From an uncultured bacterium (GTDB lineage: Bacteria; Patescibacteriota; Gracilibacteria; BD1-5; UBA6164), in NCBI GenBank assembly GCA_963922865.1, contig CAWUJK010000003.1, positions 1,947 through 65,946 on the forward strand: a stretch of 64,000 bases of DNA, read 5' to 3'. Of the stretch, positions 58,549-64,000 are shown in pieces (position 1 is the first letter of the stretch; each line of letters begins with the position of its first letter). Both the position numbers and the translations under genes were made by a program. Under the pieces are notes generated by a model. That model saw nothing but the letters and a program-made list of their open reading frames with translations. It did no database searches and was not told where the DNA came from.

Positions 58549-60135
58549 ATGGATTACTCTAAAGAGTCTATTGATAGACAAGAAAAAATCAGCTTAATGA
58601 AAAAAGCATGAATAATTTGCTATGCCAATAAATTTGAAGAAAAACAAGATATAAAAAAAATAAGAAATTCTTCTGAAAACATGTATAAAGAAGTTGAAGA
58701 ATTAATGGAAAAATGAGCTTCAAATAAATTTAAAACAGCTTGAAGACTTATATCAAGCAGATCAATGTGAAAACTTTTGTTTGCTAAACTACTAGATAAT
58801 ACATCCAGCATTCAAATATGTTTTATGAAAAATAAAATAAATTTTAATACATGAAAAAAAATAGTTGAGAACATTGAAATATGATGAGAAGATAAAAACG
58901 CATTTAAAGTAGCTGAAAAATTTTGCCAAGTATGAGACTATATATGAGTAAAATGAGACTTATTTGTAACAAAACATGGAGAACTAACAATATTTGTTAG
59001 CGAATTTCAAATACTAAGTAAAGCAGTTAGACCACTGCCAGAGAAATTTCATGGCATAAAAGATAGAGAAAGCATATATAGACAAAGATACCTTGATTTG
59101 ATAATGAATGAAAAAAGCTATGAAAGATTTATTTTTAGAAGTGAATATATAAAACACACAAGAAATTTTTACTTACAAAAAGACTTTATAGAAATAGAAA
59201 CACCTATTTTATGAAACGCAGCAAGCTGAGCTGCTGCTCAACCCTTTATAACCCATCACAACGATTTTGATGAAGATTTTTTCTTGAGAATAGCACCTGA
59301 AACCGCTCTTAAAAAAGCTACAGTTTGAAGATTTGAAAGAGTATTTGAAATATGAAAAAATTTTAGAAACGAATGATCAGACCCTTCTCATATGCAAGAA
59401 TTTTCAGTTGTTGAACACTATGCTGCTTGGTGGAATTTTGAGGATAATATGAAATTTATAGAAGAAATGTTTGATTATATTTTTGATAAAATGAAATTAG
59501 ATAAAAAAGTAAAAATCAAAGACAAAGAAGGTATAGAAAAAGAAGTAGATTTCACAACACCATGGATTAGAGTTGATTATATAGATTGAGTGAAAGAAAA
59601 ATCTGGTATTGATGTTTCAAAATATTGATCAAATGATGAAGCCAAATTAAGAAAAGATATAAAAGAAGCATGATTTACTTGGGAATGAATTGATAATCAA
59701 GGAACAACAACAATGATAGATTATCTTTATAAAAAAGTTTTAAGACCTAGTATTGTATGACCTGCTTTTGTTTACAACTATCCAAATACTATGCAACCTC
59801 TAGCAAGAGAATCTGATGAAAATGAAAACATAGTAGAACAATTTCAAGTTGTTTTAAACGGTTGGGAAATAATAAAAGCTTACTCAGAACTTGTAGATCC
59901 AAAGCTACAGAAAGAAAAATTTGATGAACAATCTTGAGCTATAGAAGCTTGAGATGAAGAGGCAACATCTGGAGATGATGATTTTGTTTTAGCTATGGAG
60001 TATGCTATGCCTCCTCAGTCAGGGTTGGGTATCTGATTTGATAGAATAATATCACTTCTAACATGACAAGAAAACCTGAGAGATGTTGTTTTATTTCCTT
60101 TGATGAAAGAAGATAGCAACGAGAAAAATGATTAA
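58549..60135 (+). CDS. lysS: lysyl-tRNA synthetase, class II (528 aa)
   Basis: The motifs are [35 protein letters not shown] and GLGIGFDRI. Confidence 0.95.
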
Positions 60136-60328
60136 AGTTAAAATAAATTATAATAGAGTGTTAAAAATATTTTTATAATGGAGTACTCAAAAAAGTGTGT
60201 AAATATAAATTTTGTATATTAATTAATAGTAATTTTAAGAATTATTTTTATTATTATACTATATAATTTCTAATAAAATTCTATTTACACACTTTTTTGT
60301 ACACTATTTATTTTTTAAATATCCCTAA

Positions 60329-60442
60329 ATTCTCTAAATATATTAAATTTTTTTCTTTTTGAAAACGATTTTGGATATTTTTATATGATTTTCAAGTTTT
60401 ATTGCCGCTCAAAAACAAAAAAATTTAATATATTTAGAGAAT
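60329..60442. repeat. ~114-nt hairpin element (26-bp arms), inverted relative to the 63131 copy
   Basis: The arms are attctctaaatatattaaattttttt / aaaaaaatttaatatatttagagaat. The reverse complement of the core aligns with 63153-63216 (tttttgagcggc...atccaaaa.cg.tttcaaaaa). Confidence 0.75.
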
Positions 60443-60490
60443 GAGAGTTTTTTGAGTTTGTATTTTGATATTTTTGTGTTATAATCTAAT

Positions 60491-60535
60491 AAAAAAAGTA
60501 TTGAACATAGCATGCTATGTTCAATACTTTTTTTT
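60491..60535. terminator. bidirectional terminator (32-nt perfect palindrome flanked by A- and T-runs)
   Basis: The palindrome is agtattgaacatagcatgctatgttcaatact. Confidence 0.8.
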
Positions 60536-60547
60536 AGTATCGCTTAT

Positions 60548-61393
60548 TTATTCTAGATAACTATTTATAAAATTTACTATTTTATCAGAAATTATATGTG
60601 TACTTCATCTTTTTTGATTGAAAAATTCTTCCATATCTTCATGAACTATAACTGGAGTTGTCTCTATTAATCAAGGCTTCCAAGGCTCATCCACATATAT
60701 ATCATTTATAGAGTAAGGCTCTCCTCATCTTATATATCTTGAGAATCTAGATATAAATCCATCAGGGGATGTGTATAGCTTACTACCTTGTTTAAATTCT
60801 TCTTTTATCTTCTTTATAGCCTTAAAAATTATTTCTAATTGTTTTGAAGAATAGCTGCCTGGTATAGATATTTTTTTTCATTTTTCATTTATCATGAATA
60901 TAGCATCTCACTCTTTTTTTATATCTATATTATTTTTTTCTCATAAAGTAATTACTTTTTTTATATATCTATCTCTATCTTCTATATTATCCTTAGCTTT
61001 TTCTGTTTCAATTTCTTTATATATATCTATATTTTTAATATCTATATCAAGTAATTTTTTTATTTCATTTGATTCATCTTTTATGGAGTAATCATTTTTA
61101 ATTTCTTCTAAAACCCTTTTAAACAATTCATTTATGCGACCATTTTGTTCCCAACTTAATTTTTCATTTAAAAATCTTTTATAATATTTATTCAAATTTT
61201 TAAGCTCTTCTAGTTGTGATTTTAATAAATTTTTCTTATCACAATCTTTTTCATTATTTATTTTGTATATTAATTCATTTTGAGCCATTTTCATTAATGA
61301 TAAAGATCATTTACTGTTATTTTTTTCTAAATCAAGATTTTCAGCTAAATGATTTAAATCTTTATAGCATGATTTGTTAGCTATTTCTCACAT
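60548..61393 (-). CDS. hypothetical protein, paralog A (281 aa)
   Basis: I checked the upstream extension of track ORF 60941..61294 codon by codon. The N-terminus is MGEIANKSCYKDLNHLAENLDLEKNNSKGSLS. Confidence 0.65.
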
Positions 61394-61493
61394 AATACTT
61401 TTTAAAGGGTATAAAAATCCTACTTTTTAAATCCTTTTACCAATTATAACATAAAAATTAGTATTATACAAAAAATTTAACAAAATATAGTTT

Positions 61494-62327
61494 TTATTTT
61501 AGAAATTCATTTATCAAATTTATGATTTCTTGAGTTTTATCATGAGTATCAATTTTTCTTCATTTTAGAAAAATATCTCTTATTTGTTTATTTGTTAATA
61601 CAGTTTCTTCATCCCAAGAAGGCCGCCAATCATCTTCTATTCAAATATTATTATATCTTTTGTGATGAGTTTCTATATCAATGAAAGATTTAGGAAATTC
61701 TAAATATGAATATATAAATTTATTATCATAAGTATATAGCTTCCCATTTGGATACTGCTTTTTTATTTTATGTATTATTTTTAAAATAGTCTCTATTTGT
61801 TTTTTGTTATAATAACTTATATAAAACCCAATACCTTTATCATTTATCATATATCTTCCTGTGGAATCATACTCTATTTTTATCCCATACTTTTCGCCCA
61901 ATCTTATAAATTCAAGTTCATAATTTATTTTTTCTTTTTCGATATTTTTTTTAATATTAGCAATTATATCCTTTTTCATGTTAAGAGTATCTTTTATCTC
62001 TTCCAATTCATAATCTATACTATGACCTTTTTCTATTTGTTTTAATATTTTTTCAAATAAATAAACTAATCTTGTGTTTTGGTGTTTATTTAATTTTCTA
62101 TTTAAAAAATCTCTATAAGGAGAATCTAGTTTTGATAAAACATCTAGTTGATTTTGTAAAATATTTCTTTTATCACAATTATTTCCATCTTTTATTTTTT
62201 TTATTAAAAGATTTTTGGAACGCTGTAATATTGACAGAGATCAATTACTATTTTTTTCCTTTAAATCAAGATTTTCAGCAGAAGCCAAAATATCTGAGTT
62301 ACATGATATACTTTCTATGTTTCACAT
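61494..62327 (-). CDS. hypothetical protein, paralog B (277 aa)
   Basis: I checked the upstream and downstream extensions of track ORF 61641..62006 codon by codon. The N-terminus MGNIESISCNSDILASAENLDLKEKNSNGSLS is homologous to paralog A. Confidence 0.65.
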
Positions 62328-62510
62328 ATTAATTTAAAAATATTTTTATTAAACTATAACATATTATCATAAAAATTATTTTAATACAAAAAAAGTCTTC
62401 TAAAAAAATAAAAATATATTTGTCAACAAAAAAAATGTTTATTTTCTTGTTTTTTCAGACTAATTTATGTTATAGTTATAATACATTTAGAATTTTATAA
62501 CTAAAAACAA

Positions 62511-63092
62511 ATGGAAAGTTCAAGTTTTTTAAGTACAAGCATCAAGAATTTAGAAAGTAAAATATTAAATGATTTCAATAAATCCCTAGTTAGAATCTCT
62601 TATTTTGATTTATGATATAAAATTTTTAAATTTTTTGGCAGAAATTTAGAACTTTTTTCTTATAAAAAATCCAGGAAAAACTTTATTTTTTACAAAGATA
62701 AAAAATGAGTAAACAATCATATAGCAGTATACAAAGCTTTGGATAAAAATGATTTTAGCTCTTGAACAGTGATTGAAATTCTAATTTGAGAAACAAACAA
62801 AAAAGATATAATTTTTCTCTCAGAAAATAAAATTTACAACATAATAGAAAACAAATGGGGTAAAGTATTAGATTCTAGTATAATAGAAGACCAAGAAAAA
62901 ATACAAAAACTACTTAGTTTTATAGAGCAAGATATAAATTATATTACAAATAAAACTAGAAAATATCAATCTAAACTTAGACAAAAATGAGTTTTAGATA
63001 AACAAATAAAACAAACCCAAATAGATAAATTTAAGATAAATTTTGATGAAAATATACTCAAAAAAAGTTTAGAAAAACCCCTTGTAGTTTAA
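62511..63092 (+). CDS. hypothetical protein (193 aa)
   Basis: ATG 62511 to TAA 63090 under code 25. Confidence 0.55.
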
Positions 63093-63130
63093 ACATATTT
63101 ACACATTTGTAAGACCAATATAAGACCAAT

Positions 63131-63238
63131 CCAAAAAATATATTTAATTTTTGAGTTTTTGAGCGGCTATATTCTTGAATAATATTTAAAACATCCAAAA
63201 CCGCTTTCAAAAATGAAAAAATTAAATATATTTTTTGG
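63131..63238. repeat. ~108-nt hairpin element (22-bp arms), homologous to 60329-60442 in the opposite orientation
   Basis: The arms are ccaaaaaatatatttaattttt / aaaaattaaatatattttttgg. Confidence 0.75.
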
Positions 63239-63497
63239 GTTTTGGGGGTTTCTAATTTTTTGTTAAATAAAAAATTGAGTACATATTTTTAAATAAACCT
63301 CTTTCAAAAAAAGAAAAAAATTAAATATATTTTTTGGATTTTGAGTTTTTCTAATTTTTTGTTAACCAAAGAATTTAATTACATATTTTTAGACAAACCG
63401 CTTTCAAAAAAGAGAAAATTAAATATATTTTTTGGATTTTGAGGTTGTTTAATTTCCTATTAAACAAAAGAAGATAAGTATATATTTTTAAATAAAA
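63201..63497. repeat. three tandem ~97-100-bp repeats
   Basis: The units start at 63201, 63298 and 63398. Each begins cc(g/t)ctttcaaaaa...attaaatatattttttgg...ttaa...atatttttaaataaa. The landmark attaaatatattttttgg recurs at 63221, 63320 and 63418. Confidence 0.8.
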
Positions 63498-63516
63498 TTG
63501 GAAAAAAAGAAAAAAA

Positions 63517-63560: not shown

Positions 63561-64000
63561 ATGAAAAACCTAGTAATAATTTGAGGAAGTGATGGTTTTG
63601 GTAGCTGGCTTGCTTGGTATATCAAAAAAAATTTTAAAGACAATATAAACCTAACCATCACCTGAAGAAATCAAAGCAAACTTGAAAAAACCTCAAAAAA
63701 AATTTGATGTAATTTTTCAACCAACAATACAGAAACTATAAAAAAATCAGATATAACTGTATTTTGTGTACCCGTATCAAAAACAGAAGAAATCATAGAA
63801 AAATATGCACCACAACTTAAAAAATGAAGCGTAGTTTTGGATGTAACATCTATAAAAAAATGACCCTCACTAGCATTAAAAAAATTTTCACCCAAATGAG
63901 TGCTTATTATCCCAACCCACCCTATGTTTTGACCATTTGTATCAACAATATCATGACAAATAATAGTTTTAACAGCTGAAAAAGAAACACAAAAAGACCC
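63561..64000 (+). CDS. tyrA: prephenate dehydrogenase (TyrA family), 3' end outside the window
   Basis: The motifs are MKNLVIIGGSDGFGSW (Rossmann), VPVS and THPMFGP. Confidence 0.7.

Follow-up and report, generated by a model that had tools for sequence, protein, structure and literature searches.

The two hairpin elements, designated L and R, that stand in inverted orientation around three genes of an uncultured Gracilibacteria genome with genetic code 25 are probably independent copies of a small, non-coding and mobile palindromic intergenic repeat of MITE-like character, which occurs in one family of this lineage. Both lie in the window, i.e. the whole stretch of 64,000 nt that was analysed (features are compiled in Table 1). 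Their geometry had led the first-pass annotation to an invertible or composite/MITE-mobilised three-gene unit; this assignment fell, given that one of the bracketed genes (p193) is syntenic in the relatives G083 and G084, and that L and R are each at least as similar to a copy on another contig. A false lead is removed in this way, with no invertible or mobilised three-gene cassette at this locus; an apparent bracket of the kind seen here can come from two insertions into neighbouring spacers.

On the preferred reading, a trans-acting enzyme recognising the conserved core would move the unit, and arm-to-arm correction, either by template switching or by gene conversion inside the palindrome, would preserve complementarity despite sequence drift. 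R, together with its decayed tandem units, would have landed in the spacer between p193 and tyrA, and L would sit in a block of ~2.4 kb with hairpin H, the terminator and two ORFan paralogs (par1, par2), inserted between lysS and p193. With two nearby insertions the inverted bracket would therefore be a by-product and not a functional pair.

The elements, their neighbours and the gene order

In the host genome TGA codes for glycine (code 25). Read with table 11, all three bracketed genes are interrupted by TGA and the open reading frames are fragmentary; code 25 restores lysS, tyrA and the bracketed genes, and with it the two minus-strand paralogs and the single plus-strand gene described at the outset between the elements are recovered. 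The paralogs par1 and par2 share 37% identity (E 2e-40). Neither they nor p193 gave a result in Pfam or PADLOC, and the host genome holds no further copies of the three proteins. A word-indexed homolog search with par1 returned only itself, an exhaustive profile search yielded 7 distant relatives, all without domains, and the AlphaFold model of par1 reached a pLDDT of 58.6, a quality insufficient for fold searching. Sites called by a promoter scan of the region were no more frequent than in shuffles. The perfect palindrome beyond par1 has the architecture predicted for a bidirectional intrinsic terminator; the strong bidirectional terminator first placed here is upheld as to this architecture and went uncalled by a simple terminator scan, probably because the T-run pairs with the A-run in the stem. 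Hairpin H adjoins L within the inserted block and has its own relatives in the host genome: sequences at C39 and C26 match it to 94% over 53 nt, and its arms recur on C1, C5, C20 and C17.

Table 1. Features of the window at and around elements L and R.
Feature	Position	Strand	Remarks
lysS, class II lysyl-tRNA synthetase	58549..60135	+	left anchor of the ancestral lysS-p193-tyrA order
Hairpin H	60188..60299	.	second dispersed repeat family, unrelated to L/R; arms CAAAAAAGTGTGTAAATA
Element L	60329..60442	-	full hairpin-repeat copy, conserved core 5'->3' on the minus strand; 106 bits, model R1
Palindrome	60491..60534	.	perfect, 22+22 nt, A7-stem-T7; 14 nt past the par1 stop
par1	60548..61393	-	281 aa, code 25; ORFan; in the ~2.4-kb block between lysS and p193
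par2	61494..62327	-	277 aa; par1 paralog
p193	62511..63092	+	193 aa; orthologs between lysS and tyrA (G083) and beside lysS (G084)
Element R	63128..63241	+	full hairpin-repeat copy, plus-strand core; 121 bits
Tandem units	63209..63504	+	three ~99-nt units; unit 1 overlaps R's right arm; D1 100/73/68% identity
tyrA-like prephenate dehydrogenase, N-terminal part	63561..64000	+	PF02153, 2.3e-22; leaves the window; right anchor

The arms of L (60329-60362 and 60409-60442) measure 34 nt, are complementary to 97% and enclose a centre of 46 nt; those of R, which starts 36 nt after the p193 stop codon, measure 35 nt (63128-63162 and 63207-63241), are complementary to 89% and enclose 44 nt. The reverse complement of L can be aligned with R over the entire ~114-nt element, including the core quoted in the first-pass annotation, and TTTTTGAGCGGC occurs in the window exactly 2 times, once per strand (expected 0.06). 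The claim of two inverted hairpins with a common core in opposite orientation is confirmed accordingly: L and R are real, homologous and on opposite strands, and the folding z-scores of their four strands, taken against shuffles, all lie between −7.5 and −8.4. Each of the tandem units beside R retains AACCGCTTTCAAAAA and the right arm, with a degenerate 5' core half. A small hydrophobic open reading frame running out of the right arm of R was considered as a type I toxin and rejected, as it is not conserved in other copies.

The order of genes in relatives bears directly on the bracket. In G083, lysS, p193 and tyrA are tightly packed and co-directional, and in G084 lysS and p193 are adjacent and co-directional, in both cases without par1/par2 or elements; therefore p193 is native to this position, and each of the two elements occupies an ancestral spacer of its own. 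Judging from this synteny, p193 still has its ancestral orientation. That L and R serve as recombination sites for the inversion of a segment, or delimit a composite unit moving three genes, is thus very improbable, even if homologous elements of ~114 nt in inverted orientation, 2.7 kb apart and 82% identical, resemble the inverted homologous sequences that flank genes in Hin/Gin-type switches, shufflons and composite transposons, and homologous recombination between them would be physically possible. Against it stand the position and orientation that p193 has kept between lysS and tyrA, and the identities within the family, where the 82% between L and R does not exceed what either shares with the unlinked C19 copy (R 85%, L 84%). 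Unlike in invertible segments and composite transposons, no invertase or transposase adjoins L or R, the bracketed p193 is ancestral and syntenic, and L and R are ordinary members of a dispersed family. The window had been noted to lack a recombinase; the whole contig likewise has no tyrosine or serine recombinase, Y1 transposase or TnpB, and the only two recombinases of the genome are on other contigs. Homologs of par1/par2 and p193 occur elsewhere without a family element nearby, all other family members are solo or tandem, and an inverted pair around genes was never seen. A search for further copies of the core found solo copies at unrelated intergenic sites, in this genome and in eight others; the first-pass annotation had given this very result as one that would refute a cassette. 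A composite transposon or mobile cassette was rejected on the synteny of p193 in G083 and G084, where par1/par2 and the elements are absent. Integron attC sites carry conserved outer R''/R' boxes, form same-orientation arrays and depend on an IntI integrase; here the outer ends are variable and the centre conserved, L and R are inverted and no integrase is nearby, and this assignment was rejected as well.

Architecture, distribution and empty sites

The unit is about 114-130 nt long, non-coding, and built of three parts. The first is a pair of arms of 20-33 bp, present in every copy, near-perfectly paired and free to drift in sequence; the second is an asymmetric inner helix of UUUGAGAGCGG with CCGYUUUCGAAA, in which two G.U pairs are kept; the third is a centre of ~45 nt, with the conserved unpaired GGUAAUAAAAC at its start. 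The core common to the members is asymmetric (UUUGAGAGCGGUAAUAAAAC ... AAACCGYUUUCGAAAA), the conserved GGTAATAAAAC carries overlapping stop codons, and the GC content of the element ranges from 12 to 34%. A covariance model was built, with a family set of ~15 members and inner-helix counts taken over 15 sequences. The arms vary in sequence between genomes with their pairing kept: 93.1% of the alignment cells are paired, as against 69.6% in shuffles, compensatory changes occur in 27 of the 37 pairs, and the covariation score is 0.595 compared with 0.167 in shuffles (0/500 as high) and 0.11-0.23 in slid controls. By this measure the hairpin is maintained, its arms staying complementary while the sequence changes.

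The host genome (1.24 Mb) contains 5 full copies at four loci, namely L, R, a tandem pair at C43 and the copy at C19. Among other genomes of the same taxonomic family the element is carried by 8 of 95, with 1-2 copies each at single loci, and complete genomes are among the carriers (CP042461.1, CP060226.1); neither of the two same-genus genomes has a copy, two sister families gave 0/66 and 0/19 genomes, and the element was not found in viral contigs. Loose core patterns run over collections of genomes, viral sequences and metagenomes gave for the most part chance matches without a hairpin, and one new true member on a metagenome contig. The element family is restricted to a single GTDB family among the code-25 Gracilibacteria. 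Its copies are always intergenic, beside unrelated housekeeping genes and in mixed orientation to their neighbours, most of them at 3-110 nt from the 3' end of some gene.

The element is to be regarded as an insertion because the orthologous spacers of congeners are without it at five sites. The spacer between typA and a gene for a 689-aa protein measures 322 nt and holds 2.5 units in the host genome, compared with 54 nt and a plain terminator in G001. At a trxB-like 3' end G096 has the element and its congeners a plain A-tract/T-tract terminator; the site filled in G075 is an empty spacer of 38 nt in G079 and G080; the spacer between a tRNA gene and rpsF is filled in G093 and empty in 10 congeners; and the site filled in G073 is empty in G074 and G007. 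For the C19 site neither G001 nor G002 offers a syntenic equivalent, and synteny is broken at lysS in the two same-genus genomes. At all five loci the filled and empty flanks are A/T runs in which no consistent direct repeat, i.e. target-site duplication, can be recognised. Whole units including their arms turn up in spacers that are otherwise short, and local amplification into tandem arrays can occur. The idea that the arms are borrowed from the terminator hairpin of the target, as suggested by C43/G001 and G096, is contradicted as a general rule by G093 and G073, where the whole hairpin is extra DNA, and was dropped.

Strand preference and possible cis-acting roles

The same architecture has been weighed as a strand-specific structured RNA gene or module, its copies being duplicated or horizontally moved sRNA genes; the long, sequence-agnostic duplex arms would then provide a stem for processing of the RNase III type, by which a conserved core RNA of ~70 nt is released or protected. 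The kept G.U pairs of the inner helix, which would be A.C mismatches on the opposite strand (columns 41/90 are G.U in 14/15 sequences; columns 43/88 are G.U in 10 and G-C in 5), speak for such an RNA, as do the strong arm covariation and the conserved unpaired GGUAAUAAAAC. In the GC-richer G024 the fold of the core strand is far more stable than that of its complement (−41.9 vs −28.0 and −42.0 vs −21.0 kcal/mol), an advantage that is smaller in G096, G093 and G075; the copies of the host genome, as well as those in G089 and G092, fold equally well or better on the other strand. Transitions of one arm against the other left 27 G.U on the core strand vs 5 on the complement, but a tally over the alignments places most of the 27 in the conserved core, where they cannot count as independent; for the arms by themselves the figures are roughly 14 vs 5, with one copy supplying much of the total. 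Copies between co-directional genes are antisense in five cases (G024 twice, G089, G096, G075) and sense in three (R, C19, G073a), and the G093 copy lies in a divergent spacer upstream of the conserved presumed rpsF promoter region, where read-through is unlikely. Taken with the sporadic carriage (8/95 in the family, 0/2 in the genus) and the absence of an Rfam match, an RNA gene appears rather unlikely. The Rfam covariance models, run on the window region and on GC-richer members, gave only miRNA/snoRNA noise (E 0.1-0.8), far below gathering scores. Retention of G.U pairs and the one-strand fold bias nevertheless hint at selection on a single strand, as RNA or ssDNA, beyond a DNA palindrome. 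The fallback first offered for the elements, REP-like repeats or structured small RNAs, is supported insofar as they belong to a dispersed palindromic repeat of the insertion type.

The proximity of most copies to gene 3' ends (3-110 nt) would also suit an exapted cis signal, such as a long bidirectional terminator or a 3' hairpin that stabilises mRNA, which would owe its retention to function rather than mobility, and at the trxB-like site of G096 and at typA, where an array replaces the terminator seen in G001, the element does stand in the place of a terminator. This reading is nonetheless improbable: G073 retains a separate canonical terminator directly after the element, the G093 copy occupies a divergent promoter spacer, in which no gene ends, the conserved asymmetric core is unexplained by a terminator role, and the distribution is too sporadic for a required signal.

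Relation to known repeats and implications

MITE-like palindromic repeats include Correia/NEMIS of Neisseria, ERIC/IRU of enterobacteria, RPE of Rickettsia, SPRITE of S. pneumoniae and CIR of Caulobacter, MITEs being defined as non-coding, shorter than ~400 bp and without a transposase (Delihas 2011, PMC3184786). The present element shares with these a length of ~100-150 nt (114-130 nt for the unit itself), the lack of coding capacity and of a transposase of its own, a long stem-loop, an intergenic position mostly near gene 3' ends, and the formation of tandem arrays. It is dispersed, with four host loci and eight other carrier genomes, and close relatives differ as to its presence at orthologous sites. 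Its 20-33-bp arms form terminal inverted repeats in every copy, atypical in that their sequence is not conserved between genomes. Repeats of the Correia, ERIC, RPE, SPRITE and CIR type reach tens to hundreds of copies per genome, whereas the element has 1-5 and combines a conserved asymmetric centre with unconserved arms; no recognisable target-site duplication, parent IS or matching transposase (Y1 and TnpB) was found for it. Variable arms ('TIRs') around a conserved centre are the reverse of a classical transposase-bound MITE, and a selfish repeat would be expected in many more copies; both count against the preferred reading as a mobile repeat, as do the lack of a recognisable target-site duplication and of a mobiliser among the families searched, the retained G.U pairs and the one-strand fold bias in G024. 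REP/REPIN sequences are likewise hairpin-forming and intergenic; their RAYT (Y1 HUH) is thought to recognise a single-stranded fold and not a TIR pair, and no target-site duplication is expected. Unlike them, the element is AT-rich and forms a single asymmetric unit of 115 nt instead of two inverted GC-rich REPs of 20-40 nt, bears no apparent GTAG/CGTC tag, is far lower in copy number, and has a host whose 93%-complete genome contains no Y1 transposase gene.

The search for a mobiliser covered Y1 transposases, TnpB and tyrosine and serine recombinases in the host genome, which is 93% complete. No Y1 transposase (Y1_Tnp, PF01797) was found at E<=1, with control genomes matched, and no TnpB above the cut-off. 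One tyrosine and one small serine recombinase were the only recombinases, on contigs C1 and C10, and no longer element bearing the arms, as a candidate parent IS, turned up.

Code-25 Gracilibacteria have tiny genomes that are usually held to be poor in mobile DNA. In the literature on this CPR lineage no such repeat was found described, and the family is apparently the first of dispersed hairpin repeats to be described in code-25 Gracilibacteria. The analysis provides a covariance model, ~15 members and five pairs of filled and empty sites, and the copies are natural markers for strain-level comparison of uncultured Gracilibacteria. The conserved asymmetric centre with its drifting paired arms could indicate an uncharacterised mechanism of mobilisation or RNA processing. 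It is rather doubtful that the element belongs to a new class of structured, strand-specific nucleic acids of CPR bacteria, either as a mobile sRNA gene or as an ssDNA hairpin. Such a class would consist of a ~70-nt core with an invariant G.U-containing helix, set on a long, sequence-free and perfectly paired stem; as an sRNA it would be matured by a double-strand-specific RNase, and as ssDNA its hairpin would be recognised by a recombinase that leaves no TIR or TSD signature.

Gene context and the two hairpin elements

The window has a GC content of ≈ 22%, and under translation table 11 its reading frames are broken at TGA, with badly fragmented gene calls. With code 25 (TGA = Gly) long genes emerge; the Rossmann motif IIGGSDGFG of the tyrA-like gene requires glycine at the TGA in positions 63582-63584. 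The first-pass annotation had described the elements L and R as homologous hairpins in inverted orientation, and this was borne out: the reverse complement of L aligns to R end to end, the 12-mer TTTTTGAGCGGC occurs in the window at two sites only, one in each element and on opposite strands (expected 0.06), and the fold z-scores range from -7.5 to -8.4. The terminator-like palindrome and the two minus-strand paralogs (37% identity) reported between them are likewise present. The left arm of R is directly abutted by a tandem duplication (AAGACCAATAT AAGACCAAT), which could be an insertion footprint or simple slippage.

Features of the locus and related repeats in the same genome (C numbers, its other contigs; for L and R, strand of the conserved core)
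Feature	Position	Strand	Remarks
lysS	58549-60135		long gene under code 25
Hairpin H, adjoining L	60188-60299		two inverted copies of a ~50-nt repeat (CAAAAAAGTGTGTAAATAGAATTTTGTATATTAATTAATAGTAATT)
Element L, arms	60329-60362 / 60409-60442	minus	34 nt, 97% complementary
Palindrome with A/T runs	60491-60534		22+22 nt
par1	60548-61393	minus	paralog of par2
par2	61494-62327	minus	paralog of par1
p193	62511-63092	plus	193 aa
Tandem duplication	63104-63127		11 nt
Element R, arms	63128-63162 / 63207-63241	plus	35 nt, 89% complementary
Decayed units beside R	63209-63504		three, ~99 nt each
tyrA-like gene	from 63561		long gene under code 25
L/R copies on C43	C43:5813-6054		two tandem units
Array on C43	C43:5750-6054		period ~117 nt
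L/R copy on C19	C19:11557-11680		one unit
H-family sites	C39:8567-8619, C26:8187-8238, C1:48854-49179, C1:57035-57209, C5:43780-43800, C20:8307-8414, C17:11215-11239
Tyrosine recombinase	C1:47001-47534		sole one in the genome

The repeat of H is a dispersed family of its own, unrelated to L/R. Its copies on C1 lie 1.3-10 kb from the tyrosine recombinase; among them a block of ~150 nt occurs in duplicate, at 49.07-49.2 kb and at 57.07-57.2 kb.

Origin of the genes between L and R

The p193 gene, whose product is small, conserved, functionally uncharacterised and unmatched in Pfam, has orthologs in three of the genomes compared, G083, G084 and G001. The order in G083 is lysS (79% identity), p193 (49%) and tyrA (64%) on a single strand, with spacers of 98 nt and 56 nt carrying ordinary terminators, and in G084 p193 adjoins lysS; it follows that p193 is native and its orientation ancestral. 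The G001 ortholog (38% identity) resides at another location. The new DNA is split in two: the lysS-p193 interval holds a block of ≈ 2.4 kb with H and L, the terminator and the par1/par2 pair, and the p193-tyrA interval holds R with the decayed units. The earlier suggestion that L and R bound an invertible or composite three-gene cassette is contradicted by this synteny and has become scarcely credible. L and R, moreover, have closer relatives elsewhere (L-R 82% identity, R-C19 85%, R-C43b 84%, and L-C19 84%, the closest to L) and therefore represent no matched pair from a single event.

The par1/par2 family is very rare: a search of 1.8 billion representative proteins turned up only seven relatives, all of them distant and without a known domain; no further copy was found in the genome, and no match in Pfam or PADLOC. 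A structure model, unreliable at pLDDT 58.6, tentatively predicts that the N-terminal half is mostly helical and that a small beta region comes after it. None of the loci with p193 orthologs or weak par1-like matches holds an element of the L/R family.

Copies, insertion sites and distribution

A search for further copies of the core, as proposed in the first-pass annotation, succeeded: in the 1.24-Mb genome (54 contigs), BLAST and covariance model R1 returned five full copies, namely L, R, two on C43 and one on C19. All copies are intergenic and flanked by unrelated housekeeping genes, with mixed orientation to their neighbours. Local amplification into head-to-tail arrays is seen beside R (period ~99 nt, 5' half of the core decayed) and on C43, where the upstream units have had their right arm replaced.

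Five orthologous comparisons of filled and empty sites establish the element as an insertion. The spacer between typA and a 689-aa gene measures 322 nt with 2.5 units here; its counterpart in G001 is 54 nt long and contains a simple terminator. At the 3' end of a trxB-like gene, the element of G096 lies 3 nt past the stop codon, where several congeners possess only a plain A-tract/T-tract terminator, and in genus g4 a spacer filled in G075 is empty (38 nt) in G079 and G080. The divergent tRNA/rpsF spacer of G093 carries ~190 nt extra, arms included, compared with ~25-30 nt in ten congeners, and in G073 the element stands between the stop codon of an IleS-like gene and a separate canonical terminator, where G074 and G007 have a short terminator only. 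The first two sites suggested that the arms are borrowed from the target terminator; as a general rule this was ruled out by G093 and G073, in which the arms move together with the unit. Exaptation as a terminator, perhaps at some sites, is quite improbable. The A/T-run flanks allowed no target-site duplication to be called.

Small hairpin repeats of unrelated kinds have a hotspot in the g4 spacer, which lies upstream of a 342-aa gene: in G078 (L077), G005 (L078) and G076 (L082) the spot of the G075 element is taken by a hairpin repeat of another, GC-rich type (CCCTCTCCC-N4-GGGAGAGGG, then TTAGGGTGAGGG).

Within the GTDB family of this genome, a second covariance model, R2, which takes in two copies from another genus, detected 1-2 copies each in 8 of the 95 other genomes, carriers spanning 6 of 29 genera (this genome's own counted); in two sister families it detected none (0/66 and 0/19 genomes). 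Neither of two same-genus genomes has a copy. CP042461.1 (Gracilibacteria 28_42_T64) and CP060226.1 (labelled Peribacteria) are among the named carriers. When collections of genomes, viruses and metagenomes were scanned with patterns, one metagenomic member was added and none on viral contigs, the remaining matches being devoid of the hairpin. No Rfam family matched the element, and no paper was found describing such repeats in CPR bacteria.

The search for enzymes covered Y1/IS200 transposases, TnpB and tyrosine and serine recombinases; the genome (93% complete) yielded no Y1/IS200 transposase and no TnpB above the cut-off. Of the two recombinase types it has one each, the tyrosine enzyme on C1 and a small serine enzyme on C10, neither on the contig of the window.

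Hairpin conservation and the nature of the repeat

Fifteen members share a layout of 5' arm, UUUGAGAGCGG, GGUAAUAAAAC, ~25-35 variable nt, AAACCGYUUUCGAAAA and 3' arm; in this genome's copies two nt are missing 5' in the inner helix, leaving a 2-nt bulge. The arms pair near-perfectly over 20-33 bp, and their sequence is unrelated from genome to genome. In the 15-sequence alignment 93.1% of cells are paired, compared with 69.6% in shuffles, and compensatory changes occur in 27 of 37 pairs; the covariation score is 0.595 versus 0.167 shuffled (0/500 shuffles reach 0.595), and 0.11-0.23 with slid partners as control.

G.U pairs are conserved at two positions of the inner helix (14/15 at one; 10/15 at the other, the remaining five having G-C), and in G024, which is richer in GC, the folding energies are -41.9 and -42.0 kcal/mol for the core strand versus -28.0 and -21.0 for the complement, as would be expected of a strand-specific structured RNA. 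This reading is nevertheless unlikely, given that orientation to neighbours is mixed, that one copy occupies a divergent promoter spacer and that the distribution is patchy. Arm-versus-arm transitions across members comprise 27 G.U on the core strand versus 5 on the complement, most of them within the conserved core; for the copies of this genome, neither strand is favoured in folding.

MITEs are defined by small size, absence of a transposase, inverted arms, mobility, target-site duplication and a parent IS (PMC3184786), and the L/R family shares the first four of these features. Arm-to-arm correction would keep the arms perfectly paired despite their complete divergence. The family is probably a low-copy, MITE-like mobile palindromic repeat that is recognised by its centre rather than its ends.
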